Counted from the stretch's first letter, positions 16,401 to 64,000 are shown. The stretch: 64,000 nucleotides of DNA from an uncultured delta proteobacterium (GCA_963707125.1 CAVPOU010000002.1:21806-85805); one strand, 5' to 3'. The notes: generated from the letters alone by a model not told the origin. Program-made: numbers and translations.

Positions 16401-17536
<1,136 letters not shown>

Positions 17537-47823: not shown

Positions 47824-48304
47824 CTCCCCCTCTTCAAATCGCTATTGGACATCGAGCGTTGACCTATGTGAACCATTAGGAAATCAATGGGTTCTTATTA
47901 GAGAAATATTGGCCCCGTGTCAAGAATGATCTTAAAATCAAGCCGTTAAAGTGAGAATCGCGTTTCTGTCCTTGTTTCCCCTACTCCACCGCGTAGAGTT
48001 CGACCAGCCCCCTTGTTCAAGCAAGCCACGATCTCTTCCCTCTGCGATACGCTTTCCTAGATACCCTATTGTGTGCTATCATGCCGCATCGCTATGGCTC
48101 GGTTGCACTCGTCGCTTCCAATTCTTGAAAGACTTCGTCTGGCGCTTCTACGGCCCAGAAAGCCAAAGATCTCTTTTTGCGCGCCATGCAGGGATTCCAC
48201 TTCGCTTTTGAAGGCTTTGAATTGACAATGAAATCATTATCCTTACTTTCTTGCGGAATTCACAGACTATCCGCTCGCAACCTCGATATCAGGGAGTTTC
48301 ATTT

Positions 48305-50653
48305 ATGAGTCCCCAGCTTGCAGATTACCCGTTTCGTTGCGTGTTCAGTTTGAGACCCCTTATCGAGTTCTGGCGTCGAAACATTGCCGCCAATCCCGAA
48401 TATGGGAGTTGCCTGGCAGAAAGCCTTGAAGCAAAGCTTCAAAGAGCCCCTGAACTCCTTGAACCCATAGAAGATCTCACCGTTTTGGACCAGCACCAGG
48501 ACCTGCTCAAAAGCTTGATGAGTTTGGTTTTTCCTCCGGCCTTCTGGAAGACAGACCTGGTGGGCGCCTTTGTGCCTTTCATCCTCCTGCCGGTTTACAC
48601 CTCTCCCTCATTCAAGCGCCTCATTCTAAAGGACGACGGCTCTTTCAAGGGCACGCCTCTCATGGGACAAGAAAATTTCTTCGTGGGTCGTATCCTTATG
48701 GCCTACTTCCTGATTCTCGAGCGTCACTACGGGATTCGCCGGGAAATAGACCCCCCGATCATCCAGGTGGTTCCGGATCCGGACACGGGACTGGATCTTT
48801 ACTTCAGAATAAGACCCAACATGAGGTTTATTGAAGTGCACCCGAGAGGCAAACTCAAAGAGCTCACCGAACAAGAGCGCGCAAGAATTCTCCAGAATAT
48901 GACAAACCCGGCTGTCCTTCGGGAAATTCTGCCGCCTGAGAACTTTGAATTCAGCGGCTTCGGTTCTCTTTACGTATTCGATGTGACCCAGTCTGAAATC
49001 ATCTCAGCACTGGAGAGAAGCCTTATCGATCAGGAATCCATCTTCTCCCAGAGCGGTTTTCAGCTTCTCCAGCAAAAGCTTCGCACCCTGTTTCGCTGTC
49101 CCAGTCTCGTCGCCGGCCTCGCGGCGATCAAGGGCGATCAGGTTATGCTCTTGAATGTGGGATGCGATCTTTCCGACAGTTCCGTTTTTTCAGGGTCCCT
49201 GCACCTGCCCCTTAGCGAATTTGAAGGATCCTTCTATGAACGGGCATTCACGGAAAACAGGATTCTCATTATCCGGGATCTCAAGGAAAAGACGCTCCGG
49301 ACAAAAGCTGAGGAAGCCGTTTTCCAGGGCGGCGCCAGATCGCTTCTCATTGCGCCTCTGACCTACCAGGGAAGCATGATCGGCACCCTTGACATTACCT
49401 CACCGAACCCCGGGGAATTCGGCCCCGAGGACCTGATGCTGATGAACCAGATCATTCCAATCTTCGCACTGGCCGTCAAAAGAGCGCTGGACGAGACGGA
49501 CCACCATATCCAGGGCGTTATCAAGCAGAAATGTACCGCCGTGCATCCCGCAGTGGAATGGCGCTTCCACGAGGCGGCATTTCATCATCTGGACAGAATC
49601 AGAATGGGACAGGTGTCTGATCTTGAACCGATCGTCTTTAGAGATGTTTACCCTCTCTATGCCATCTCTGACATTCGCGGGTCTTCCGAAGAACGAAACC
49701 GGGCCGTGCGGAGTGATTTAGAAGAGCAACTGGGTTTGGCTCTCAGGGTGATCCAACTGGCAAGCGAGGCAAGATCGATGCCTATTCTTGAAGAGCTCGG
49801 CCACCGCCTGGGAAGGCAACTGGAGCGGCTGCGCGGAGGCTTGAGCTCCGGAGATGAAGCCTCCGTCATCAAGATGCTTAAGACAGATGTTGAACCCCTC
49901 TTTGTCCCTTTTCAGGATTTCAGCCCGCAAGTCCGCGTGGCCATTGAAGGGTATCAGTCCGCTCTCGATGCCAGGTTGGGTACCGTCTATCGCAAGCGCA
50001 GGGAATTCGAAGAGAGCGTGTCGCTTCTCAATAAACGGATCTCCCTTTATCTGGACCGGGAACAGGTTGAAGCCCAGTCGGTGTTTCCCCACTACTTTGA
50101 GAAGCACCAGACCGACGGGGTGGATTACCTCATCTACGTGGGTGCCAGCCTTGTCGAAAAAGGGGTGTTCAATGAACTGTATCTCGAAAATCTCAGACTC
50201 TGGCAACTGATGGTCTCCTGCGGCATCGCATGGCATACTGTGCAATTGAAGACCGAGCTCAAAGTGCCGCTTGAAACGGCTCACCTTATCCTGGTCAATC
50301 ACACGCCCCTTTCTATTCGATTCCGATTTGATGAAAAGCGGTTTGATGTGGACGGTGCCTATGACGTAAGGCAGGAGATCATCAAATCACGGATTGATAA
50401 AGCCATGGTGAAGGGCAGCCCAGAGCGCCTTACCCAGCCGGGCAAAATCGCGGTGATCTACTCTCAGCCCCAGGAAGGAAGGGAGATACGCCGCTACATC
50501 GATTTTCTTCGATCTCAGGGTTTCCTCAAAGGAGACACAGAAGCATTAGACGTGGAAGAGCTTCCCGGTGTGCAAGGGCTCAAAGCATTGCGCGTCGAAA
50601 TCGACCTCAAATCCCCCGTCATCTCAGAGCGCACAGCCCGAATGTCAAAGTGA
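48305..50653 (+). CDS. Large GAF-domain protein with uncharacterised C-terminal domain
   Basis: GAF signature RSLLIAPL..IGTLDITS..F; AGGGAG RBS before ATG 48305. Confidence 0.85.
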   Translation: MSPQLADYPFRCVFSLRPLIEFWRRNIAANPEYGSCLAESLEAKLQRAPELLEPIEDLTVLDQHQDLLKSLMSLVFPPAFWKTDLVGAFVPFILLPVYTSPSFKRLILKDDGSFKGTPLMGQENFFVGRILMAYFLILERHYGIRREIDPPIIQVVPDPDTGLDLYFRIRPNMRFIEVHPRGKLKELTEQERARILQNMTNPAVLREILPPENFEFSGFGSLYVFDVTQSEIISALERSLIDQESIFSQSGFQLLQQKLRTLFRCPSLVAGLAAIKGDQVMLLNVGCDLSDSSVFSGSLHLPLSEFEGSFYERAFTENRILIIRDLKEKTLRTKAEEAVFQGGARSLLIAPLTYQGSMIGTLDITSPNPGEFGPEDLMLMNQIIPIFALAVKRALDETDHHIQGVIKQKCTAVHPAVEWRFHEAAFHHLDRIRMGQVSDLEPIVFRDVYPLYAISDIRGSSEERNRAVRSDLEEQLGLALRVIQLASEARSMPILEELGHRLGRQLERLRGGLSSGDEASVIKMLKTDVEPLFVPFQDFSPQVRVAIEGYQSALDARLGTVYRKRREFEESVSLLNKRISLYLDREQVEAQSVFPHYFEKHQTDGVDYLIYVGASLVEKGVFNELYLENLRLWQLMVSCGIAWHTVQLKTELKVPLETAHLILVNHTPLSIRFRFDEKRFDVDGAYDVRQEIIKSRIDKAMVKGSPERLTQPGKIAVIYSQPQEGREIRRYIDFLRSQGFLKGDTEALDVEELPGVQGLKALRVEIDLKSPVISERTARMSK

Positions 50654-50654
50654 A

Positions 50655-50770
50655 CGAGTCAAGGGACAAAGGGTCAAAGTAGCAAAGGCACAGAGCAGAA
50701 AAAACATTCAGTTCTATCCCTTTGTCCCTCTGTTCCTCTGTGCCTTTGTCCCTTTGAACCTTTGTGCCTG
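50655..50770. repeat. Octamer palindromic repeat (CAAAGGGW/CCTTTGTS)
   Basis: caagggacaaagggtcaaag ... ccctttgtccctctgttcctctgtgcctttgtccctttg. Confidence 0.7.
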
Positions 50771-50773
50771 CGA

Positions 50774-51538
50774 CTACATTCCTTTCATCTTCGCGATATC
50801 CAGATCCTCGATCACGGTGATGCCTTTGGCCTTCATCTCATCAAGAGCCTTTGCTGAGGTCTCCGGCGCCACGCCCTTGCTCAAATTCTTGACCATGATG
50901 ACCTTGTAACCGGCAGCCGCCGCATCTATGGCCGTCGCTTTCACACAGTAGTCTGTCGCGATGCCGTAGACCACCACCTTCTTAATGCCGGCCTTCTTCA
51001 GGATCTTGTCCATATCGGTCTTTTTCCCGCCGTCATCCTGAAAACCGGAGTAGCTGTCATACTGGGCATCCATCCCCTTCTTGACCGTAGCTTTGAAGAG
51101 CTTCTTGTCCAGCAGAATCTCCGCCCCGGGGGTGTTCTGCACGCAGTGGGGCGGCCACAGAACCTGGTCTTTTCCATGAAGCTTGATCACGTCAAAAGGC
51201 TTCTTCCCCTGGTGATTGGCGGCAAAGGAAGCATGGGTCGCAGGATGCCAATCCTGGGTCGCGTAGATGGGGAACCCGGCCGCTTTCAGCTTGGCTGTGG
51301 CATCTGCCACTGACTTGACGTAGGCGTCGTCGGTTCCCTCAACGGCCAGAGAACCTTTCTTGGCTTTAGTGAAATCCCCCTGAAGATCAACGACAATGAT
51401 CGCCGTGTCCACTGCCTTCTTGGTTGCTGCCTTGGCCGGTTCCTTGGCTTGCTTGGTTGTCTGCGCCATAGCCATCCCTCCAAAAGCCAGCGTAACGAAC
51501 AATACTCCGATCAGCACCTTGAATCCCCATTTCTTCAT
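50774..51538 (-). CDS. pncA: Nicotinamidase/pyrazinamidase with N-terminal signal peptide
   Basis: VVDLQGDF, TQDWHP, LWPPHCVQ, SYSGF, GIATDYCV. Confidence 0.9.
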   Translation of the reverse strand: MKKWGFKVLIGVLFVTLAFGGMAMAQTTKQAKEPAKAATKKAVDTAIIVVDLQGDFTKAKKGSLAVEGTDDAYVKSVADATAKLKAAGFPIYATQDWHPATHASFAANHQGKKPFDVIKLHGKDQVLWPPHCVQNTPGAEILLDKKLFKATVKKGMDAQYDSYSGFQDDGGKKTDMDKILKKAGIKKVVVYGIATDYCVKATAIDAAAAGYKVIMVKNLSKGVAPETSAKALDEMKAKGITVIEDLDIAKMKGM

Positions 51539-51723
51539 AAGCCACCTCCATTTTAAGAGTTAGACGAAGTATCCCCAAAACCAGAAGGAACTGATTGGTT
51601 CTCTCAGCGGTTTTATACTCCTCCGAAAAAGGGAAAGTCAACCTGTTCAAATTGTATCGGAATGACCCTTAGGATCTCATGTTGGTCAGGTGCACACCGG
51701 AGAGGGCGAAGAAGCCCTAACCG

Positions 51724-52020
51724 CTACTCTTCGCGGGCCATGGTGATGGCGCCCTTGGGACAGATGAAGGCGCAGATACCGCAGCCCTTGCAAAAATCGT
51801 AATCGATCTCAATGTGGCCGGTCTTCTCATTTCTGGTGATGCAGAGATCAGGGCAAAAATAGCGGCACAGGTCGCAGCTGCGGCAGAAATTATTCCCAAG
51901 GCACCGGCTCGCCTCCATGACCGCTGTCTCCTCATCAAGACCCGGTTTGACATGGTCAAGTTCTTCGGCGTGCTGCTCTTCACCCCGGCGCCTGATTTTC
52001 AATTCACATGGTTCAGCCAT
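51724..52020 (-). CDS. 2x[4Fe-4S] ferredoxin-like protein
   Basis: CRSCDLCRYFCP and CKGCGICAFICP; preceded by EASRCL. Confidence 0.88.
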   Translation of the reverse strand: MAEPCELKIRRRGEEQHAEELDHVKPGLDEETAVMEASRCLGNNFCRSCDLCRYFCPDLCITRNEKTGHIEIDYDFCKGCGICAFICPKGAITMAREE

Positions 52021-52036
52021 CCCGGCTTCCTTCGTT

Positions 52037-52154
52037 TCACCGCAAAGTCGCAAAGGACGCAAAGAAAATATTTTTCAGAGCTTCACTCTGTCCGATCGGT
52101 ATCTCCCGATCGGACAGAGAAAAACTCTTTGCGCTCTCTGCGTCTCTGCGGTGA
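52037..52154. repeat. Nonamer palindromic element
   Basis: TCACCGCAAAGTCGCAAAG ... CTCTGCGTCTCTGCGGTGA with an internal hairpin CTCTGTCCGATCGG/CCGATCGGACAGAG. Confidence 0.8.
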
Positions 52155-52155
52155 G

Positions 52156-53559
52156 TTATCTGTTTTTTGATTCCAAGTACCGGTCCACGGCCTGGGCGGC
52201 TTTCTTGCCGCTGGCCATGGCTTCCACCACCGTGCTTGCTCCGGTGACAAAGTCCCCTGCGGCGAACACCCCGTCCGCATTGGCTTGCAGGGTCTCTCGA
52301 TCGATAGACAGTACTTTGCTGCCTGATGCAAGACCGTTCACCACCGGCTCATAGTCCGGCTGCTGGCCGACAGCGGAAATAATCGTACCGGCTTCGATCA
52401 CGAACTCCGATCCTTCCACCGGCACAGGTCTTTTCCTTCCGGACTGATCCGCGTCCCGGAGCTCCGTCTTGATACATTGAAGCCCCTTTACCTTTTCTCC
52501 TGAGACCAGCATTTTCTTTGGAGCGGTGAGAAACTCTATTTTGATCCCCTCTCTAAGGGCATCGTTGATCTCTTCCCGGTCTGCAGGCATCTCTTCGAGG
52601 CTTCGTCTGTAAAGGATGGTCACCCTTGCTCCGCTTTTTCGAAGAGCAGAACGGGCCGTATCCACCGCGGCATTTCCGCCCCCGATCACTAGAACCCTGT
52701 TGCCCAGAGCGACGTCCCTCTGATCGCTGCATGCTTTCAGAAAATCGAGACAGTCCAGATACCCTCGATGATGATCCTCATTTTCAATGTTCATTTTCAG
52801 ACTTTTCTGAGTCCCTGTTGCGAGGATCACCGCATCCGCACCATCCTTCCGAAAGCCCGAGATCTTCACTTCAGAGCCGAAGTGCATCCCTGTTTTAATC
52901 GTGACGCCCATTTTTCTGATGTAGTCGATATCTCTTTGCAGGATCTCCCTGGGCAGCCGAAATGCAGGTATGGCCCACGCCAGCAACCCACCCGCTTCCC
53001 GGTAGGACTCGATGATCTCAACCTGATAGCCCATCCTCGCAAGCTCATGGCCGGCTGCCAGGCCCGCAGGCCCCGAACCTACAATTACCACCTTTTTCCC
53101 TTTGGGTTTGCCAACGCTAGGCGGGTTGAGCCGGCCATCATCGTAATCCGTGACAAATCTCTTCAAAGACCTGATCGACAGGGGATCATCCACTCGACCC
53201 CTGGTGCAAGCGCTCTCGCAGGGGTGATGGCACACATACCCGCAGACCGATGGAAGCGGATTCGCTTCCCTGATCAGTTCGATAGCTTCGCCATATCGCC
53301 CTTCTGCAATGAGCCTCATGTAGCCGCGCACATCCTGCCGTACCGGGCAGGTTGCCTGGCAAATTGGAAGGTCGAAGACCTTTGTGACGTTGATCTTCGG
53401 CTCTGTATCTGAACTGGAATACAGTTTTCCCCTGAGGCTCTCCCCTTCATACCTGAAGTCAGGGATCGCCTCTGCCGGACAAGCCTTGAGGCAGACTCCG
53501 CACGTCTCACAGCGGTTGTAATCAATTACGGGTTTGTGGGTTCTTCCCTCGACGGCCAA
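52156..53559 (-). CDS. GltD/NfnB-like FAD/NAD(P) Fe-S oxidoreductase with N-terminal ferredoxin motif
   Basis: CETCGVCLKACP, CQATCP, CGYVCHHPCE, GSGPAG, IGGGNAAVD. Confidence 0.9.
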   Translation of the reverse strand: MAVEGRTHKPVIDYNRCETCGVCLKACPAEAIPDFRYEGESLRGKLYSSSDTEPKINVTKVFDLPICQATCPVRQDVRGYMRLIAEGRYGEAIELIREANPLPSVCGYVCHHPCESACTRGRVDDPLSIRSLKRFVTDYDDGRLNPPSVGKPKGKKVVIVGSGPAGLAAGHELARMGYQVEIIESYREAGGLLAWAIPAFRLPREILQRDIDYIRKMGVTIKTGMHFGSEVKISGFRKDGADAVILATGTQKSLKMNIENEDHHRGYLDCLDFLKACSDQRDVALGNRVLVIGGGNAAVDTARSALRKSGARVTILYRRSLEEMPADREEINDALREGIKIEFLTAPKKMLVSGEKVKGLQCIKTELRDADQSGRKRPVPVEGSEFVIEAGTIISAVGQQPDYEPVVNGLASGSKVLSIDRETLQANADGVFAAGDFVTGASTVVEAMASGKKAAQAVDRYLESKNR

Positions 53560-53668
53560 AGCTTAGCGCTCCTCCTTTTCATTCGAAGGGCTTGCTGAAC
53601 TATTATTGAAATCGCGCAAATTCAAATTTCAAAATCCAAATGTCAAAGGAATGTCAAATCCCAAAATC

Positions 53669-54298
53669 CTAAAGTTCCATCTTTGATCTTTGGATTTGAT
53701 TTGACATTTGGACTTTAGCATTTGGCATTGCCCTCTGCTTACTGCCTTCTGCCTGCTGCTTACTTTCCTTTCCCAGACGATATCCCAGCTCAAGGGCCTT
53801 GATATTCAGGTCCCTGAAGCGGGCAGACACATTCTCGGTGATCGCCGCGATCAGAGCTTCTTTGGTGACCATTCCTGTAATCGCTGCAAAGGCTCCCAGG
53901 ATAACGATGTTCGCCGACTGCTTCTGGTCGAGCTCTTTGATTGCCTGAGAAGTGGCCGGGATACCGATTTGTATCACTTTCTCCAGGGTTCGAGGTGCAA
54001 CCATCTCGTCGTCATAGATAATGACTGCCCCTTCAGCCAGTTCCTCAGTGTACTGGTTGTAAGCCGTCTGAGCCATGGTGACCAGTACATCGGCCTCAAT
54101 CACGTGGGGAAACACGATCTGCCCGTCTGAAATGACGACATCCGAGCGTGCGGAACCGCCCCTGGCCTGAGCCCCGTAAGAGCTTGCACCGGCCACCCAT
54201 TTCCCGTCCTTGGTGGCGGCATATCCCAGGATCGTGCCTGCCAGCACCACACCCTGGCCCCCGAATCCGCTAATTCTGACCTGCCTGGGCTCACCCAT
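53669..54298 (-). CDS. 2-oxoacid:ferredoxin oxidoreductase gamma subunit
   Basis: SGFGGQGVV, SYGAQARGG. Confidence 0.93.
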   Translation of the reverse strand: MGEPRQVRISGFGGQGVVLAGTILGYAATKDGKWVAGASSYGAQARGGSARSDVVISDGQIVFPHVIEADVLVTMAQTAYNQYTEELAEGAVIIYDDEMVAPRTLEKVIQIGIPATSQAIKELDQKQSANIVILGAFAAITGMVTKEALIAAITENVSARFRDLNIKALELGYRLGKESKQQAEGSKQRAMPNAKVQMSNQIQRSKMEL

Positions 54299-55052
54299 GC
54301 ATGAATTCCCCCGTGACGATCTTGTCCTTCAAGGCCTCTCCACTCAAGCGTTCGACCTCTTCCACGGGAATGCACGACTCCATCAGCGTCTTCAGCATGT
54401 CCGTCGGGGCGTCGTATCGGTTCCTTCTTCCAAACTGTGTCGGGCAGGGAGACAGCACTTCGACAAACGTGAACCCCTTTGTGCCCAGGGCTTTTTTTAT
54501 CGCTTCCTTCAAAGAAACCACTTGAGTCACGGAATAACGGGCCACATAAGAGGCTCCTGCAGCCTGCACGAGCTTGCACAGATCAAAGGGCCGGTAAATG
54601 TTGCCCTCGATGCTCGTGGCCGTCGAAGCTCCGAGGGGGGTGGTCGAAGCCACCTGGCCGCCCGTCATGCCGTAGATCATGTTGTTGGCACAGATCACGG
54701 TCATATCAATATCTCTTCTTGCCGCATGGATGAGATGGTTGCCTCCGATGGAGGTGAGATCCCCGTCCCCGCTGATCACCACCACCTTAAGCTCAGGATT
54801 GAACATCTTTGCGCCTGTTGCAAAGGCAATGGCCCGGCCATGAAGGGTGTGAAGGGTGTCTGCATTGAAGTTAGGGCTTGGAATCCAAGCGGCGCATCCG
54901 ATGCCCGAGACGAACAGCATCCTCTCCATGGGCAAATGGAGCTCATCGATTGCTCGGAGAATGGCGTTCATCAGGATTCCGTGCCCGCACCCGGGACAGA
55001 AAGGAGTTGATTTCACATCCGAACGCAAATAGGCTTCCAGGTCTCTTGCCAT
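54291..55052 (-). CDS. 2-oxoacid:ferredoxin oxidoreductase beta subunit (TPP-binding)
   Basis: FCPGCGHG, SGIGC, GDGD...NN, YGMTGGQ. Confidence 0.95.
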   Translation of the reverse strand: MARDLEAYLRSDVKSTPFCPGCGHGILMNAILRAIDELHLPMERMLFVSGIGCAAWIPSPNFNADTLHTLHGRAIAFATGAKMFNPELKVVVISGDGDLTSIGGNHLIHAARRDIDMTVICANNMIYGMTGGQVASTTPLGASTATSIEGNIYRPFDLCKLVQAAGASYVARYSVTQVVSLKEAIKKALGTKGFTFVEVLSPCPTQFGRRNRYDAPTDMLKTLMESCIPVEEVERLSGEALKDKIVTGEFMHG

Positions 55053-56194
55053 TACAATAGACTCCTCACTTGTTCCATGATTTTGTGAGGGTGAATGATC
55101 TCTCCATCGATCTGACAGTAGGAAACGACCTCACACTCGGCATACTTCAGAATCTCGCCGGCGATCTGCCCTCGGTTCATTTCAGGGACAAATATCTTTC
55201 TGGCTTTTTTCCCCACCTCGCGAATGGCCTGGTCTGCGAAGGGCCAGATGGTTTTCAGCCTCAAGAGACCGACCTTTTTTTCTTCTTTGCGAAGTCTCTC
55301 TGTGGCGAACAAGGCGCTTCTTGCCGTAAAGCCGTAGGCAATCACCACGACATCCGCATCATCAGGGTAATAAGCCTCTGTTTGAATGATGTTTTCCCGG
55401 TGCTTCAGGATTTTATTGTTGATCCGGACCACGAGTTTTTCATGGGCTTTCCCATCATCCGTCTTCCGGATTCCTGCATCATTGTGGGTCGAACCAGTGA
55501 CCAGAAGGTTTTCCCCCTCTCCGAAAGACGGCATGGGCGGCACACCGTCATCTTCCGGGGTCCCGAAAGGGGGAGCCCCTTTCTTCTTGATCCGGTTCAC
55601 GACCTTCACCCTGGGTTTCACATCCATTCTTTCCCTCAGGTGACCGACGGCTTCCTCAGCCATGAGAAAGACAGGAACCCGGTACTGCTCTGCCAGGTTG
55701 AAGGCCTCGATCGCCTGGTCGTACATTTCCTGCACAGACCATGGGGAAAGGGCGATGACCTGATAATCCCCGTGAGAGCCCCACTTGGCCTGCATGTGAT
55801 CGCCGCTTCCCACTCTCGTGGCCTGGCCTGTTCCAGGCCCTGCCCTCTGAACATCCACGATCACTAAAGGGGTCTCTGTAAATGCCGCGTACCCGATCGC
55901 CTCCTGCATGAGACTGAAGCCGGGTCCAGACGTGGCCGTCATAGCCTTGGCTCCGGCCCACACTGCGCCGATGACGGAGCAGATGGACCCGATCTCATCT
56001 TCCATCTGCATGAACACCCCGCCCACCTCTTTGAGCCGGACGGCGATCCGCTCCATGATCTCGCTTGAAGGCGTGATGGGGTATCCCCCATAGTACCGGC
56101 ACCCGGCGGCAATCGCCCCTTCGGTCGCCGCCTCGTTCCCGGAAAAGTAATAACTCCCCGCAGGGAGTGTGCTCCCTATTTCGTGAACGCTCAT
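55052..56194 (-). CDS. 2-oxoacid:ferredoxin oxidoreductase alpha subunit
   Basis: GYPITPSSE, QMEDE, TATSGPG. Confidence 0.95.
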   Translation of the reverse strand: MSVHEIGSTLPAGSYYFSGNEAATEGAIAAGCRYYGGYPITPSSEIMERIAVRLKEVGGVFMQMEDEIGSICSVIGAVWAGAKAMTATSGPGFSLMQEAIGYAAFTETPLVIVDVQRAGPGTGQATRVGSGDHMQAKWGSHGDYQVIALSPWSVQEMYDQAIEAFNLAEQYRVPVFLMAEEAVGHLRERMDVKPRVKVVNRIKKKGAPPFGTPEDDGVPPMPSFGEGENLLVTGSTHNDAGIRKTDDGKAHEKLVVRINNKILKHRENIIQTEAYYPDDADVVVIAYGFTARSALFATERLRKEEKKVGLLRLKTIWPFADQAIREVGKKARKIFVPEMNRGQIAGEILKYAECEVVSYCQIDGEIIHPHKIMEQVRSLL

Positions 56195-56322
56195 AAATTG
56201 ATTGGTTATTCCTTTTTGATTCCAGCAACCATAGGAAAAAGTTGCCATCCAGTCAAGAAAGAAACAGGGCAGAAAATAGGTCCATTCCTCGAATCAGATC
56301 AGATGAATCCGCCGTCACTCAG

Positions 56323-57138
56323 CTAGAACCTGAAAGTAAACCGTGAACTTGCCTTGTGCACAACCTGCCCGAACTCCCTGGTCCAATGCATTTCTTCCTC
56401 TGACAAGGGACCCTTTTCCCGAAGGTGATGAAGATTCGCTTGGAGCTGCTGACGGTTCTTGGGGCCTGTGAGCACCAAATCCACGTGGGGATTGGACAGA
56501 CAGAAGCGATAGCAATCCCCTGCCGTCATGACGGGTCCATTCCACCCTTTTGGGCGCTTGAGCAGACCGCCCCACCGCGTGGCTGTGTACGTAACAATTG
56601 CCGGCCGGCGTTTGGCGAGATAGGGGAAGATGTCCTGTTCGGCCCCTGAATGAGCAGCATTGTACCGGATCATCAGCATGTCCAGCGGGGAATCTGCTGC
56701 GAGTTTGCCCGCCCGCCTCCTGTCGTGAATGCTCGCCCCAATGGCACGGACCATGCCTGACTCCCGAAGGGAGATTAGCGCATCGATCGTGGACGGAGTC
56801 CAGGCACTCGCCCGGCCAAGCCAGAACAACTGAAAGATGTCAATATAGTCCGTCCCGAGTTTCTTAAGCAAGCGTTCGCAGGCGCGCCTGACACTTCCGC
56901 CAAAATATGCGGTGGTCGGCCCGCAAGCCAGGACAAGGGATTCCCGGTCACGCTTCAAGGCCTCTTTGAGCGACTTCGTCACCTTTCGCGCGTTGGGAGT
57001 CCAAAAGACATAGTTGACCCCTTGTTCCAGCGCCCATTCCAAATCCGCTCCGTCAACGCCGTAGTTGGTCGCTAAACCGAGCCGGAACACCCTCTTCCTA
57101 AAGGCGGGAACATCCCGATGCAGAAAATCATCGCTCAT
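56323..57138 (-). CDS. Aldo/keto reductase
   Basis: LKKLGTDYIDIFQL, GMVRAIGASIH, IRYNAAH. Confidence 0.88.
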   Translation of the reverse strand: MSDDFLHRDVPAFRKRVFRLGLATNYGVDGADLEWALEQGVNYVFWTPNARKVTKSLKEALKRDRESLVLACGPTTAYFGGSVRRACERLLKKLGTDYIDIFQLFWLGRASAWTPSTIDALISLRESGMVRAIGASIHDRRRAGKLAADSPLDMLMIRYNAAHSGAEQDIFPYLAKRRPAIVTYTATRWGGLLKRPKGWNGPVMTAGDCYRFCLSNPHVDLVLTGPKNRQQLQANLHHLREKGPLSEEEMHWTREFGQVVHKASSRFTFRF

Positions 57139-57304
57139 GAGTCGGAACCCTTTCCCTCCGAGGCATAGTCCCCCTTCCTGTGCCTTTCATTTTCCGAATA
57201 ACTTAGAGACATCGATACCGCGCTTAAGATACATGAATATTCGTTTCAGACCAAGACAAAAGCTTTCTTATCGGATCGCTCATTTGAAGCCAACTCTTTC
57301 TTGA

Positions 57305-57420
57305 GATTTGATTTTGCAATAGGAAGTGTTTCGCCCTCTGGATTATTTGAAATCATAGCCGTTCGATCAGGCCGGTTGGTGTCTTCTTATAAATATCGTC
57401 ATGGAGAGCGGCCTGGTGGT
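57305..57420. repeat. Cassette-boundary element, copy D (most degenerate)
   Basis: TTTGAAATCATA (57346-57357) is identical to 63922-63933, followed by GATCA..CCGG..TATCGT..GAGAGCG..TGGTGG as in copies C and A. Confidence 0.5.
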
Positions 57421-57592
57421 TTTCCAGCGAGTTCTTCGTATCGTTAATCGCTCGCTCTAAGGGGTGCTCGAAATGATAGGTTAGCGTCTGTAATCATTTT
57501 CTTTACAATAAGCAAACCAAGAGGTTTCCAGGAGGCATGGACAAACTACGTTGCGGATGGAATCCCCTCGCTTGCGACTCGTTACTCGCCAC

Positions 57593-59167
57593 TCATCGCT
57601 GTATAAGTCCCGACACAACCGTGTTGTTCGTCTCATCTGTTTCAACAAGGGCGTTGGCCGCATCCAGGATCCCTATGATGTAAACACTTGAACGGTCATA
57701 CGGGGCTTTGAGTGTCAGGTTCACATCCACATATCCACCGGGTGTTATGCTCGACACTGTGCTTTTTCCGAGAAACAGATCCGTTTTCTGAAAGGCGGAA
57801 TCAGCAGACTGGTAAACGCAGAGGATTGAGCCCGGAGCAACCTGGTTTCCGAGATTCTTGATTCTGATTTTCCCTTTGAATGTGCGGGCCCACCATTTAG
57901 TGGATCGATTCAGGGAAAGCCACTGGCCTGCAAGGTCCACCCCGGAAGCGGTATTGTTCACTGCGACAGCAGCCGCACCGTTCACCGCGACAGAGCACTG
58001 ATCCAACGCACTCAGGCCTCCTGAGTCGGTCACGGTCAGACGGAACACAAGGCTGCTGCTCGCTCCACCTGTATCAGCCAAAAATCGGGGTTGAGCTGAC
58101 TCCGGATTGTCAAGCGTAACAGGCGCCCCTGCTGTCTGAAGCCAGGAGTAGGCAAGAATTCCTCCATCCGGATCTGTTGAACCGATACCGTTCAGGGTCA
58201 CACTCACGCCCTGATTCACGTTCTGATCGGGACCTGCATTCGCTGCGGGTGGCTGGTTCACCGACACCACGTTGACGATGCAGGTATCTCGTGCCTGAAG
58301 GCCACCCGAATCCGTAACCGTTAACTGGAACATCAGGCTCTCGCCAGCCTCGCCGACATTCGGCGCCACGAAGGTGGGTTCAGCGACAGAAGGGCTGCTC
58401 AATCCTACAGGAGTTCCGCTTACCTGGGTCCACTCGTAAGAGAGTGCAAAGCTGTCCGAATCACTCGAGTTTGAGCCTTTCAAACTCACCATCGTTCCTT
58501 CATTCACACTCAGATCAGTCCCTGCATTCGCTGCGGGAGGCTGATTGATCCAGAGCACATTCACCAGACATGTGTCCGCTGACTGCAGCCCGCCCGAATC
58601 CGTGACCGTAAGTTGAAAGCCGAGTGTTTCCCCATTAGGACCCACATTCTGAGGCATAAACGTTGTCTGAGCCGCAGAAGGATTGCTGAGGGTTACGGGG
58701 GTGCCCGAAACTTGGTACCAGGAGTAAGTCAGGGCTCCTCCTTCGGGGTCTGTGGAGTTGGAGCCGCTCAATGTAACGAGAGTCCCTTCATTCCCATTTT
58801 GGTCCGGGCCTGCATTGGCCAGAGGCGGCTGATTGGAAGTGGAGAGGGCGGCACTCACCTCGTTAGAGAAGTCACTTTCTATGTTTGCCGTATTCACAGC
58901 GGTTGCAGCGAAGTAATAGGTCCGGCCCTGCTCAAGTCCTGTAACCAAGCAGCTTGTGGAGTTCCCTACCTCCATGAAATAACCGTAATTCCTGCTCCCT
59001 AACCCGTAGTACACTCTGTATCCGGCCACATCCGGCTCTGTGTTCGGATCCCACGCCAGATTCACTTCGCCGGCATGGACCGCGGATGGACTGAAGAATG
59101 CACAGAGGAGAAGAAAAGAACCTCTGAGGAAAAGACACCGGAAACAGGATGTTCTTAGGAAAGACAT
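57593..59167 (-). CDS. Secreted surface protein: FN3 + three PKD/REJ-like Ig repeats + CARDB-like domain
   Basis: Signal peptide, LAWDPN..GYRVYYG..YYFAATA, three NQPPxANAGxD..YxWxQ..FxLTVTDSGGL repeats, IKNLGN..ETDETNN; AGGAGG RBS. Confidence 0.9.
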   Translation of the reverse strand: MSFLRTSCFRCLFLRGSFLLLCAFFSPSAVHAGEVNLAWDPNTEPDVAGYRVYYGLGSRNYGYFMEVGNSTSCLVTGLEQGRTYYFAATAVNTANIESDFSNEVSAALSTSNQPPLANAGPDQNGNEGTLVTLSGSNSTDPEGGALTYSWYQVSGTPVTLSNPSAAQTTFMPQNVGPNGETLGFQLTVTDSGGLQSADTCLVNVLWINQPPAANAGTDLSVNEGTMVSLKGSNSSDSDSFALSYEWTQVSGTPVGLSSPSVAEPTFVAPNVGEAGESLMFQLTVTDSGGLQARDTCIVNVVSVNQPPAANAGPDQNVNQGVSVTLNGIGSTDPDGGILAYSWLQTAGAPVTLDNPESAQPRFLADTGGASSSLVFRLTVTDSGGLSALDQCSVAVNGAAAVAVNNTASGVDLAGQWLSLNRSTKWWARTFKGKIRIKNLGNQVAPGSILCVYQSADSAFQKTDLFLGKSTVSSITPGGYVDVNLTLKAPYDRSSVYIIGILDAANALVETDETNNTVVSGLIQR

Positions 59168-59221
59168 ATTGGCACCTCCTGGATAGTAGACCGTGCAGGA
59201 ATCAGCACCCAGGAAGGTGCT

Positions 59222-59316
59222 CCACCGCCCGGCAGCCTCCCAACCCTATCCCTCAGGGACTTAGGCCGATGGCTTTGCGTCCCGCTCTTTCGAACGGTTT
59301 GCTTTTTTTAAGCGTT
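59222..59316 (-). ncRNA. GEMM-I cyclic dinucleotide riboswitch (c-di-GMP-I family, A20 variant)
   Basis: AAGCAAACCGUUCGAAAGAGCGGGACGCAAAGCCAUCGGCCUAA...GGCUGCCG matches the GEMM-I consensus and lies in the 5' UTR of the surface-protein gene. Confidence 0.9.
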
Positions 59317-59408
59317 CAATTTGAGATGATGCTTTAGAGCCTGGAATTCCCTTTCATCCAAAACTTAGAGTAAAGACATGGGGGGTGCTAATGGCTAGTG
59401 GTTATGAA

Positions 59409-59424
59409 AGCAAGAGGTGTGCCG
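59409..59424 (-). promoter_or_regulatory. Sigma54 (-24/-12) promoter
   Basis: CGGCAC-ACCTC-TTGCT upstream of the riboswitch. Confidence 0.7.
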
Positions 59425-59797
59425 TATGCGCTATGATGAAAAAGACATCGGGAATGTTCTTTGATTGTTAAGAGATACACTCAGACGCCATATTAGGCCC
59501 TTCATCTATGGCGCCCTTGGTGTTCAGAAAAAGAATCCATGGGTGAAAAAATGTAGACACACGCGGGTTCTTTTTGTCATCAGCCGATCCTGTCTCACAA
59601 CCGCCCAGGTCGACTCAGATTGTCACCACTTTTTAACTCTGCTGAGAAGCAGGGTATTGGGTGAGGAGTTCCCGGAAAAAATTGTTACTGCGGCCGAATG
59701 GTGGTCTGATCGCCGTCGTTGCGATCTCGATATTTGGGGGTCAGTTGATTGGGTTTGACCTTTGATTGTAAGCAATTGAGAAAAAGTGGTAGCGGCA

Positions 59798-61189
<1,392 letters not shown>

Positions 61190-61246
61190 TCATCTCCTTT
61201 TCTCGAGGATATCGAACCAATACTAGAGTGTACGATGCTATAGAAA

Positions 61247-61262
61247 AGCAATATCAGTACCA
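61247..61262 (-). promoter_or_regulatory. Sigma54 (-24/-12) promoter
   Basis: TGGTAC-TGATA-TTGCT. Confidence 0.65.
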
Positions 61263-61385
61263 AACATGATTCTGGTTAAAAGAAGCCTTTTTTGTTTAAT
61301 AAATCCATAGTGTTAGCAAAAGCCTGTTTAATTCCAGTCTCTTCCAGTGACCGTGTCTCTAGCGTGCAAAAAACAACACGTGATG

Positions 61386-61401
61386 TGTGAAACAGATCAC
61401 A
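61386..61401. promoter_or_regulatory. CRP-type palindromic operator
   Basis: TGTGA-AACAGA-TCACA, a perfect TGTGA-N6-TCACA. Confidence 0.5.
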
Positions 61402-61403
61402 GA

Positions 61404-61540
61404 TGCTCGGGGCCTGGGTTACCCCAGGACTACGCAACACTCGGTTCCGGCTGTCAGCACACTTTGCCGGGTAGGACTGTTTACCTACAGGGTCTCACAA
61501 AGGAGTTTCAACTCCCTAATGGAGGCTTCGCCTGGCGCAC
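61404..61540 (-). mobile_element. Truncated group II intron, 5' end/domain I fragment
   Basis: Begins GTGCGCCAGGCGAAGCC; hairpins GGAGT-TGAA-ACTCC and CCTGGG-GTAA-CCCAGG; GCCGGAACCGAGTGTTGCGT; no RT ORF or domain V seen. Confidence 0.72.
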
Positions 61541-61680
61541 ACTTCCCAATTTGAATCGAAATCTGAGTATACCCTCGAAAGTCCGGGTTTCAGATCAACC
61601 GCTTGAATGGAGGTTGCGTATCGTAGTGTTGGCTTTTGAATTGGGGTCAGAGGCGCGTGATTACCAAGCCGAGTCATAAT
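61541..61680. repeat. Cassette-boundary element, copy B
   Basis: Shares TCAGATCA and TGCGTATCGTAGT with copy C, and a 24/29 match (61650-61678) with copy A. Confidence 0.7.
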
Positions 61681-61942
61681 GTCGGCTGAAAGGAAAACTC
61701 GTGGCGATATACAACCTCATCTCAAGGGCACATCATGTTGGGGGCCAGAGGATTTCGGTGGACGGGGGTGTTCCGGGCTGGTACGGTCCGCTGGGAACGC
61801 AAGTGGGAGCATTCTTTCTATTTCATGTGGGTATCACTTGCCGTAGGAAGGAAAGCGAGAAAGAGGTATGCTGTCAATATCACAAACTGTGTGATATCTA
61901 CTCTTCCTGTGATATATGTTGAGTCATCCTTTCATATCCGAT

Positions 61943-63319
61943 TCAATCTAAAAGAAGTTGCAGCCAAGGCATAACCCGCGTTCTCTTGCTATGCTTGATT
62001 AGAAACGCTTCGATATCAAGCCATATGTCATTAGTAGTTATATGACCGATCCCAGGATACAAAACGAATTTAGCTGAACTGCCAATAGATTGGTAAATAT
62101 CCTCGGCAACAATCCATCGTTCTTGTATTGTCTCACCAAGAAAATGCAATTCCGTACTGACATCCTGACTGTCCCAGTTATCATCCTTGTCCCCCAGATA
62201 TAAGAAAAGTGGAACTTTGTTGAACTCGCTCAGGTTGAATGGTGTACCAGTAACGACATCAAGATCTGAGATACCCAGATCGTATGTCATGTTGTGACCC
62301 CACCATGTTGCCACAGGTGCTATCGGCCATCCCCCAGGTGAACCAATGGCCGCCGCCATGATTCTTTCAGGATGAATCGCAGAAAAGCGACTGACGAATG
62401 CCCCTGATGCTGAAAAGCCAATCATGAAAAACTTTTTGTTCGACTTAATCCCCTTCCCTGCAAGTCTCTCGATTGCATCATCGACCATGGCAATCAACTG
62501 CAAATCAATCCGAACCAAGTTTTCTCTTTGAGTCAGCAATGCCGTCCTGTCCAGCGCCTGTGTATATAGATCCTCATAACGCGGGAAAATCGGGACAAGG
62601 AGTGGTGCCTTCAATACATAGGCAAATGGGGACCGTATATTGAGAAATGACTCTGCCCTTCCCTCATGAAAAGCAAAGTCATCAGACGGGACACCCGAAT
62701 TGTTCGGTTCGACCAACAGCAGGGCGGAACTTCTGGCAGTTTCTGGAACGTAGAGTAAGTAAGGCCAGTGGAAGCCTTTTTCCGGTTGTGCGGCAATTTT
62801 TTGATAGTTGATAGATTCTATCCAAAAGGTTAAATTGTATTCTTCCGCAAAATTACCTTCGGTGTCCCGGATATTTTCATACCCCGGCAAATTTATCATT
62901 ATCATAACTTTAGTGTGCGGGACAAATGGATAATGGACATCCTGTCGTGGCAAATAAAGGGTTTTGCCATCTTCAGACCAGTAGTTTGTGAAGAAAGAAC
63001 TAGACCAGTTGGATGTGGATACTGACCGGTACGCAGTATTCATAGGTTTGTTGAATGTTATAGATACCAGATCAGCAGTCTGGCTGACACCGGTCGCTCC
63101 GTTTACTGGATTCGCGGAGATTGCGACAGGTGATGCTGTAGCGAGTCCAACATGAACCAATATGAAGAAGAAAATAAGGCATAGGGTCAAATGGAAAAAA
63201 CCCTCAGGATAGTCATTATTTCTTTTATCATTCTCTATCCTCAAAGTTTTTGAGTTACATTTTCTTAACATATTTGAAATCCCCTCAATCATGCATGAAA
63301 ACGCATGGTCGGTTCTCAT
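61943..63319 (-). CDS. Secreted alpha/beta hydrolase with N-terminal Ig-like (Big_5-type) domain
   Basis: Hydrophobic signal, PVNGATGV..ITFNKPM, nucleophile GFSASG, YPGIGH; AT-rich; the true start probably lies downstream of 63319. Confidence 0.8.
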   Translation of the reverse strand: MRTDHAFSCMIEGISNMLRKCNSKTLRIENDKRNNDYPEGFFHLTLCLIFFFILVHVGLATASPVAISANPVNGATGVSQTADLVSITFNKPMNTAYRSVSTSNWSSSFFTNYWSEDGKTLYLPRQDVHYPFVPHTKVMIMINLPGYENIRDTEGNFAEEYNLTFWIESINYQKIAAQPEKGFHWPYLLYVPETARSSALLLVEPNNSGVPSDDFAFHEGRAESFLNIRSPFAYVLKAPLLVPIFPRYEDLYTQALDRTALLTQRENLVRIDLQLIAMVDDAIERLAGKGIKSNKKFFMIGFSASGAFVSRFSAIHPERIMAAAIGSPGGWPIAPVATWWGHNMTYDLGISDLDVVTGTPFNLSEFNKVPLFLYLGDKDDNWDSQDVSTELHFLGETIQERWIVAEDIYQSIGSSAKFVLYPGIGHITTNDIWLDIEAFLIKHSKRTRVMPWLQLLLD

Positions 63320-63882
63320 TTAATCCAGTCGTCCCTGAAAAACCGTAATTCTATCTGAATTTATTAGTAATTATTGAGAATATGTGCTATCAAAATTGCA
63401 GGTTTTTCGGCAACAACCATCCAAAACCTTGCAATTTTTGAGAGCATGAAACCCAAGAAATCTCCCCACTACCGATCGGCAAAAGGATTTGTTCCGGTTT
63501 GAGCTTTGCGGTAAGGTGATAAGAACTTGCTTCAGATGGGTGGGAGTATAAGGGGATTTGGCCTTGTGTGTCAAGGGAGAAGTCGGCTCATCATGCTGAG
63601 GTCCGGTGGATCGAGATGAGCGAGGGCATCCGAGCTGGTATGGTGTGCCGTGAACGTAAGGAGGCGCAAGCCCGAGATTTAATTAGAGACGGCGTTTTGA
63701 GCGAAAAAGGACGAAGATTACCTTCCAGGCTGCATGTCGGTTTCCGGGCTTATGGCAGAGGTCTGGCGCGTATATGGGGTCGCCCTAGAACGAGCGATTA
63801 CTGATCCAAGTCCGTTGAGATCCGAGCGATCATCCACTAACGATTACCCAATTCATCCTATTGCGTGGACAGGAACGGGGCT

Positions 63883-63985
63883 GGTTACGATTTCGAAATT
63901 GAACCGGGACCTGAGCCTGCCTTTGAAATCATAATCCTCAGATCACCCGGCTAAACGGAACCATGCGTATCGTAGTTGTAAGGCT
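63883..63985. repeat. Cassette-boundary element, copy C
   Basis: Imperfect palindrome TACGAT..CCGGGACCTGAG..CTCAGATCACCCGG..ATCGTA. Confidence 0.7.
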
Positions 63986-64000
63986 CAGATCTCACAGGTG

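Follow-up and report, generated by a model that had tools for sequence, protein, structure and literature searches.

The right-hand end of the 64,000-nucleotide (nt) stretch analysed here (hereafter the window; G000:C2:21806-85805), which comes from an uncultured delta proteobacterium of sediment, holds a row of unrelated minus-strand genes separated by copies of a non-coding repeat, and the question raised by this locus is what these repeats are. A reading made from the sequence without database searches (the sequence-only reading) had proposed that they are recombination sites of an integron-like gene-capture array, with decayed miniature inverted-repeat transposable elements (MITEs) or a repeated structured RNA as alternatives. 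The explanation we favour, at a probability of about 0.5, is a different one, namely that the repeats are portable intergenic spacers carrying expression signals and acting as homology patches. In what follows G000 is the genome under study, G001 and G002 are congeners, and L025, L030 and L031 are loci from other genera.

On the evidence of sequence comparison, copies A, B and C of the repeat are pieces of a genus-restricted family of modular intergenic spacers, the modules of which follow one another on the + strand of the window in the order mod1-2, E3, leader, promoter core and X. The pieces present in the window are the following:

57346..57455, + strand: D, candidate decayed mod2 remnant with a 12-mer shared with C and the CGTATCGTTA motif; missed by the family profile
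59798..59898, + strand: copy A, mod1 joined straight to E3, without mod2; profile matches
61517..61683, + strand: copy B, mod1-2 (61517-61643) and E3 (61599-61683); profile matches
61727..61811, + strand: X-piece, in which the E3 leader continues into the 85 initial nt of X; left edge of a 99% identical duplicated block
63507..63590, − strand: putative promoter core, TTGACA-18 nt-TATACT (63574-63545), with conserved leader; predicted to fire towards the hydrolase gene
63590..63855, + strand: module X, conserved non-coding sequence upstream of the promoter core; alignment of 20 copies, drawn from G000 and from loci of G001, G002, G017 and G019
63851..63993, + strand: copy C, mod1-2, cut by the contig end; profile match

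Four degenerate copies had been claimed, and three of them hold. When the copies are aligned locally and compared with 300 dinucleotide shuffles, the scores of A with B (z 11.5) and of B with C (z 12.7) are reached by no shuffle and that of A with C (z 5.4) by only one, so that the comparison with shuffled controls that the sequence-only reading had called for comes out in favour of a common origin of these three. D reaches z 4.7 with C (two of 300 shuffles) but is at chance level when compared with A (z 0.0) and B (z −1.1). Also, a profile built from the genome-wide copies and then run on the window recovers C at an expectation value (E) of 1e-39, B at 7e-26 and the first 31 nt of A at 0.0013, and misses D, the closest match being 57430-57457 at E 9.7. 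D does keep two collinear landmarks of mod2, the 12-mer in common with C at 57346 and, 92 nt beyond it, the CGTATCGTTA motif at 57437, and is possibly a decayed copy, at best a remnant of mod2. Copies A, B and C all lie on the + strand, as had been noted, with one minus-strand gene unit per interval. The description of the element as palindromic survives only in part: copy A does have short inverted termini, whereas the fold stability of A, B and C, computed on either strand with RNA parameters, is unremarkable (z −0.84 to +0.86), and the word applies to the short inverted termini alone. Contig C2 ends 2 nt past the last base of the window, inside copy C, and this copy therefore sits on an assembly break.

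Within the family, mod1-2 is ~130 nt long and equals copy C, while E3 measures ~65-80 nt, from CGTATCGTWA at its start to GATTAGCAACTCAAGTCATAAC at its end; in the sequence that follows B, the leader runs straight into the 85 initial nt of X. Read in gene sense, which is the minus strand here, a full spacer runs from the stop of gene n through E3, mod2, mod1, X and promoter plus leader to the start of gene n+1. Words of the GGTTAYGAYTT type recur every ~47 nt, two to four in a row (C12 29147-29240, C4 731636-731720 and window 63790-63910), a spacing that resembles an array of protein-binding sites. Profile searches of G000 return 25 matches to mod1-2 and 30 to E3 (both at E≤0.01) and 48 to the promoter core (E≤0.001). 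When the mod1-2 and E3 matches are merged into 50 blocks, 29 of these lie no more than 4 kb from another, whereas 500 random placements give 3.9±2.7 and never more than 12, and the genome-wide scan that had been suggested as a check reveals a dispersed family that is both clustered and co-oriented. There are three blocks on C2, five on C12 (the last at the contig end), five at 472-487 kb and three at 727-734 kb of C4, four at 479-489 kb of C15, and several pairs; blocks reach the contig ends of both C2 and C12, and inside one cluster the strands agree in nearly all cases. The array layout is a general property of the G000 genome. The spacing between co-oriented blocks holds one to three genes, mostly for secreted or surface proteins or small unknowns (PKD, beta-helix, TPR, DUF2202, alpha/beta hydrolase, CAP), the spacers being clustered in co-oriented runs around accessory, mostly secreted-protein, genes. 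A 628-nt query consisting of promoter core, X and mod1-2 matches 15 of 41 genomes including G000, the promoter core being the most widespread part; X is matched in G000-G002, G017, G019 and G020, and G001 is matched over the mod1-2 part. Copy B alone matches three of 61 family genomes at E 1e-5, namely G000, G002 and, weakly, G007.

The modules have a fixed relation to the neighbouring genes, E3 lying at gene 3' ends, with stop codons in three frames, and mod1-2 upstream of gene starts in one orientation. Of the 17 mod1-2 matches at E≤1e-5, 15 have a gene of the opposite strand on their 5' side, and the module stands 77-930 nt upstream of the start of that gene. For E3 there are 22 matches; the 3'-side gene points towards the module in 18 of 21 cases, with 12 of the 21 lying between convergent genes; the gap between E3 and the gene ranges from a 19-nt overlap to ~1 kb and is below 150 nt in ten of 18. 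The first 19 nt of E3 in gene sense offer TGA, TGA and TAA in three different frames (e.g. window 59870-59896). Indeed, copy A overlaps the stop codon of the mreB-like gene (59879-59881), as previously remarked: it is the TAA of E3 that ends this gene, which has lost 1 nt by comparison with G002 and the paralogues (GG in place of GGG; 59879-59915) and consequently reads eight codons into E3.

The promoter core of the window matches the consensus hexamers at 11 of 12 positions and is the best such site in 57000-64000. Its identity to other copies is 76-99% over 60-100 nt within G000 and 74-89% in other genera, in each case with unrelated genes downstream, and in L025, L030 and L031 a ribosome-binding site and the ATG of unrelated genes come directly after the leader. 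As a side observation, the ~75-nt unit of promoter plus leader, present 48 times in G000, has a conserved 18-nt spacer and a leader that ends in CTTATCACCTCAC; the conserved spacer and the resemblance of the leader to the 3' end of 16S rRNA suggest something more than a plain promoter. All three gene units of the window have a putative promoter or a riboswitch of their own, of sigma-70 type for the hydrolase and in the form of a riboswitch and sigma-54-like sites for the other two.

A comparison of gene order in relatives had been proposed as a further check, and the locus indeed turns over, the copies being neither randomly scattered nor set in an identical order of genes. Synteny with G001 and G002 is limited to 52076-56276 and the aldo-keto reductase gene (56322-57170). 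Where G000 carries its three units, G002 shows a different set of genes among copies of mod1-2 and E3, one of them for an IS256-type transposase, and in G001 the genes immediately upstream of the reductase gene are unrelated ones. The stretch upstream of the start of this gene (56322-57590; G001:C49, G002:C19) differs in all three congeners, and the three-way divergence begins ~15-30 nt before the start codon. Two of the units have counterparts elsewhere in G002: that of mreB (59884-61525) at G002:C16:266787-268428, with 95% identity and no module detected in the 1.5 kb to either side, and that of PKD (57590-59424) on G002:C24, with 77% identity and homology stopping at 59424. The hydrolase unit was found in neither G001 nor G002. 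Conversely, an alpha/beta-hydrolase unit of the G002 array is 95% identical to C14:16757-18155 of G000, and its ends adjoin E3 and mod1.

The positions at which homology stops are informative. Within G000, the block 61727-63512 is duplicated on C18 at 98-100% identity (~99%). With an insertion sequence (IS) removed, the identity profile is 38-48% up to 61726, 87% in the edge bin 61727-61817, 96-100% at 61818-63417, 94% in the edge bin 63418-63512 and 79-85% at 63513-63810, and the edges of the block coincide with the joint between leader and X and with the end of the promoter leader. The IS in question (C18:80264-81656; L018 5514-6569) is of the DDE_Tnp_1 type and lies in the leader of the second hydrolase copy, flanked by a 9-bp duplication. 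Where the mreB unit ends on its 3' side, 13 nt of the E3 terminus are common to G000 and G002, which diverge thereafter; both ends of this unit and both ends of the C14 alpha/beta-hydrolase unit are breakpoints at module edges. A related strain provides a 3351-nt contig that matches 57000-59833 and departs from the window at the joint between mod1 and E3 in copy A. As aligned, the breakpoints lie at module edges, at differing nucleotides rather than at one fixed position. Three further module loci were compared with the congeners. At the C26 locus a GGDEF gene is conserved without the module, G002 homology upstream of it stopping short of the module; the C15 locus is not syntenic, its two flanks being on separate contigs of G002, where the gene downstream was not found; and at the C14 locus the G002 contig breaks off at the module, with the contig end inside it.

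We infer from these observations that the spacers would provide a gene-end element and a strong promoter for genes arriving in the flexible genome. Because they resemble each other, they could also serve as homology patches, between which general or illegitimate recombination would swap, duplicate and delete units; the outcome would be a cassette-like appearance without a dedicated integrase. Such spacers fit the fixed orientation and the patchwork of identities, as well as breakpoints that vary, contigs that break and the lack of a dedicated enzyme in working order. If this is correct, the lineage builds its flexible genome around reusable spacers that combine a promoter with a gene end, which would be a concrete case of promoter reuse, so far mainly a statistical pattern. 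It would also account for where assemblies of these organisms break, and the spacers would mark the sites of recently gained secreted proteins, among them PKD/Ig-repeat proteins, hydrolases and c-di-GMP-controlled genes.

A number of points weigh against this explanation. Downstream of the promoter core, the start of an open reading frame (ORF) of 80 aa or more is met within 350 nt in 45 of 48 cases, against 802 of 1000 random positions and 24 of 48 in the direction opposite to the core; with random positions giving 80%, this count is a weak test. E3 shows no evident terminator hairpin, and of the three terminator-like sites in the region none falls in a module. The 13-nt identity at the joint of E3 and mreB exceeds what a simple homology patch predicts. 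The tight clustering would fit a site-specific process as well, and so would the repeated occurrence of breakpoints at the short inverted termini (GGTTAYGAYTT and its complement). Finally, the promoter and gene-end functions are assigned from sequence and position, and the part played by homologous recombination is presumed.

The clustering and the termini bring back the integron-like capture array of the sequence-only reading, of which the clustered co-oriented repeats between accessory units stand, while the enzyme and the attC pairs do not, and folds computed with RNA parameters show no special stability. The integron integrase IntI was not found in G000, where NCBIfam TIGR02249 has 14 matches with a best score of 86 bits against a cut-off of 265, none of them on C2. 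An inverse core RYYYAAC followed at 55-150 nt by a core GTTRRRY does not occur on either strand of the four spacers (0.43 pairs expected in shuffles), confirming the reported absence of the canonical attC order; a stricter attC search that required L-box pairing gave none in the data and none in shuffles, and is hence uninformative. As had also been stated for the window, there is no recombinase at hand: contig C2 as a whole has no match to a tyrosine recombinase or to a Y1 or Y2 enzyme. Elsewhere in G000, however, two Xer-like tyrosine recombinase pseudogenes (C4:248694-249455 and C4:726365-727072; 88% identical) lie at most ~1.5 kb from a copy of mod1-2 or a compact form of it; both are frameshifted before the catalytic tyrosine, and each is followed by an E3-like stretch. 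A homologue in G017:C23 keeps the region of the catalytic tyrosine, with one internal TGA, and is followed by the same E3-like stretch, and an uninterrupted homologue of 304 aa exists in G017:C384; the short contigs of relatives that bear intact or broken homologues hold no arrays. G000 also has two fragments of a Y2 transposase, both beside modules, and none that is intact. The proximity of recombinase pseudogenes and IS91-type Y2 fragments to some modules suggests descent of part of the family from a mobile element that is now dead. A tyrosine recombinase gene upstream of the Y2 transposase gene is an architecture of IS91-type and insertion sequence common region (ISCR) elements, and it is seen in G002, which has four two-gene elements encoding a 302-aa tyrosine recombinase and then a 423-aa Y2 (IS91-type) transposase:

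C24:539487-541011: two-gene element of G002
C20:18475-19999: two-gene element of G002
C25:17940-19464: two-gene element of G002
C16:280577-281834: two-gene element of G002, with partial recombinase

Two alternatives build on such enzymes. The modules may be the inert debris of a once-mobile element, either MITE-like or the ends of the recombinase-Y2 element, passively shuffled, which we regard as doubtful. It would account for the inverted termini of 11 nt, both of which are present in five copies of 28 to 196 nt, for the variable internal deletions (A lacks mod2 and B the promoter part), for the pseudogenes and Y2 fragments adjoining modules, and for the intact elements of G002, three with a full recombinase and one with a partial one. 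The MITE alternative of the sequence-only reading draws on the same termini and deletions and is partly apt, but a MITE model as such is set aside, with only five two-ended copies of uneven length, none with a target-site duplication beside it. A link to IS91 was rejected as well, since none of the ten Y2 loci in relatives has a module within ~1.5 kb, and the two-gene element of G002 has no nucleotide similarity to G000. Moreover, the fixed orientation to genes (15 of 17 and 18 of 21) and the cross-genus promoter core argue for selection rather than debris. The Y1_Tnp matches in G000 number eight, of which C18:144520 lies ~280 nt from an E3 and a broken copy on C17 beside a promoter core, the remaining ones not being near modules. 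Alternatively, the module termini may be the sites of a dedicated non-canonical capture system, served by the Xer-like recombinase or by a two-gene element of IS91 type, which is unlikely; in its most explicit form, the GGTTAYGAYTT termini would be the crossover sites of an analogue of integrons that is independent of IntI and attC, in sulfate-reducer-type bacteria, with a recombinase now decayed, and each captured unit would bring or receive its own promoter. Improbable as it is, such a system would mean that integron-like gene capture arose a second time, independently. In keeping with it are the strong clustering of co-oriented blocks with one to three genes in between, the turnover of units between congeners, the unit boundaries at or within the short inverted termini, the compact forms that consist of two termini alone (C4 728593, C15 479207-479236), and the position of both recombinase pseudogenes, close to a module and followed by an E3-like stretch. 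Besides the missing IntI and attC pairs and the unremarkable folds, it has to contend with the frameshifts of both G000 recombinase copies and with G002, which has many modules and no homologue of the C4 recombinase at E 1e-10; of ten PF00589 matches in G002, the best-assembled congener, none lies on the array stretches identified there, and the nearest of them is separated by ~16 kb from a lone match to E3 on C25. Four runs list no joint by which a unit is skipped or circularised, and the two junction records with extra letters (63973/59869, 59812/63852), considered as circles, are better explained by other copies or strains. With units that carry their own putative promoters, breakpoints that vary in position and no recombinase near the G002 arrays, the proposal that the copies work as recombination sites is not sustained.

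Two alternatives remain. Binding-site arrays for a transcription factor or nucleoid protein that co-regulates secreted-protein genes, a quite unlikely account of the modules, would explain the half-site-like words ~47 nt apart in mod1, the 3' part of X and E3, the position of mod1-2 upstream of starts in 15 of 17 cases, the LuxR-type regulator gene that adjoins the compact copy on C4, and the presence of genes with cyclic di-GMP (c-di-GMP) riboswitches in two arrays. Such arrays sit poorly with the C26, C15 and C14 loci, where the comparison with G002 shows homology that stops short of the module, split flanks and a contig break, and with E3, which is found at gene 3' ends and not upstream; distances to the start that vary from 77 to 930 nt are a further difficulty. 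It is very unlikely that the modules belong to an abundant non-coding RNA with a defined structure, and the corresponding alternative of the sequence-only reading finds little support: the consensus fold of 20 copies of X reaches only −5.07 kcal/mol with two of 23 pairs compensatory, the single folds of A, B and C do not depart from expectation, and no module has an Rfam match, either in 55000-64000 at E≤1 or in five other module-rich loci at gathering score, where the only hits are two c-di-GMP riboswitches. RNAalifold with RIBOSUM scoring of 17 sequences does favour X on the + strand (−51.6 versus −33.2), with energies that are not comparable with those of the other consensus and single folds and that we have not relied on. 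Summed contig depth in three RNA libraries peaks at 61446-61913 and 63318-64000; this depth is strandless, adds up copies and other organisms, and may include DNA. Several gene stretches are without cover in the contigs of these libraries, and with strandless depth and no ends shown we draw no conclusion on expression. Compared with these alternatives, the account we prefer remains that of portable spacers with expression signals, acting as patches of homology.

The genes that the spacers separate were described as one unrelated minus-strand unit per interval, an FN3/PKD protein, an mreB-like gene and a secreted hydrolase, and this description is borne out by the annotation of the window:

57593..59167, − strand: gene for a secreted FN3/PKD/Ig-repeat protein, 524 aa; Pfam K319L-like_PKD (9e-54), PKD_4 and fn3
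59228..59313, − strand: aptamer of a c-di-GMP-I riboswitch, within the PKD gene leader; Rfam RF01051
59409..59424, − strand: sigma-54-like −24/−12 match with one mismatch, upstream of the riboswitch; motif search
59879..60931, − strand: MreB-like paralogue; Pfam MreB_Mbl, 472 bits
61021..61263, − strand: small ORF upstream of the mreB-like gene; probable start at 61187 after an AAGGAG-like site, by eye
61247..61262, − strand: sigma-54-like match with one mismatch; motif search
61943..63319, − strand: secreted protein with a Big_5 Ig-like domain (Pfam, 3.1e-5) and an alpha/beta-hydrolase-like part with a GFSASG motif

The riboswitch match covers the full model (positions 1-87) and scores 72.6 bits (E 3.7e-13), where the gathering score is 35, and 59228-59313 is on this measure a c-di-GMP-I riboswitch. 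Two of the repeat clusters include genes with such riboswitches, namely the PKD gene of the window and a TPR protein gene in the C12 cluster, the latter preceded by a c-di-GMP-I-GGC variant (L011 10954-11087, − strand). The two sigma-54 promoters of the sequence-only reading exist as sites with one mismatch each, but the window contains 23 matches with up to two mismatches against 30.7 expected, which is not above chance. The hydrolase-like protein has a weak match to poly(aspartic acid) hydrolase-1 (PDB 9o7u; E 6.8e-4). At least six further MreB-like paralogues are present in G000, with 65-92% DNA identity, at C1 35895-36996, C15 485048-486136, C15 332775-333764, C24 53852-54753, C13 101523-102454 and window 16527-17416. 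The last two units are also AT-richer than the rest, as had been seen, the GC content being 0.45-0.49 over 60000-64000 and 0.50-0.57 over 48000-57000.

Several known systems share features with this family. ISCR elements have outward promoters and pick up neighbouring genes, bacterial interspersed mosaic elements (BIMEs) are sites of rearrangement, and CALIN are clusters of attC sites lacking an integrase. Like IS91/ISCR elements, the family occurs in a context of a recombinase gene followed by a Y2 gene, of which G000 has pseudogene and fragment versions beside modules; unlike them, it comes with no intact Y2 in G000, and the intact elements of relatives are without flanking modules (0 of 10). 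BIMEs (PMC2817692) are likewise intergenic modules in varying combinations, placed at gene 3' ends and provided with short inverted repeats. BIMEs and repetitive extragenic palindromes (REP) are built on palindromes of 20-40 nt, usually in more than 100 copies, whereas the present family consists of modules of 30-270 nt with 25 to 48 copies each. The family differs from BIMEs in that orientation does not alternate and the promoter is part of the unit, and a link to REP-associated tyrosine transposases (RAYT) is not apparent, one or two of the eight Y1 matches being near a module.

Integrons and CALIN (Cury et al. 2016, PMC4889954) resemble the family in co-oriented repeats 1-4 kb apart, accessory genes and turnover, and CALIN also in having no integrase nearby. 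The co-occurrence of at least two co-oriented sites within 4 kb, by which CALIN are delimited, is found here in 29 of 50 blocks against 3.9 expected. The family departs from integrons in the absence of IntI, of the R''/R' core order and of a stable hairpin in folds with RNA parameters, and its mosaic repeats of 100-700 nt are unlike integron attC. According to PMC4889954 integron cassettes rarely contain promoters, whereas the units of the family have putative promoters of their own. A parallel to the promoter core is offered by putative mobile promoters, highly similar non-coding sequences upstream of unrelated genes (Nijveen, Matus-Garcia and van Passel 2012, PMC3575422), which, as the family does, occur within a genome and across genera, with no known route of movement and no Rfam match. 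Among its copies the promoter core reaches the identity of at least 80% over at least 50 nt, upstream of non-homologous genes, by which these were defined; unlike them, it is set within a longer ordered spacer that marks the end of the preceding gene, and it occurs in clustered co-oriented runs in a variable locus.

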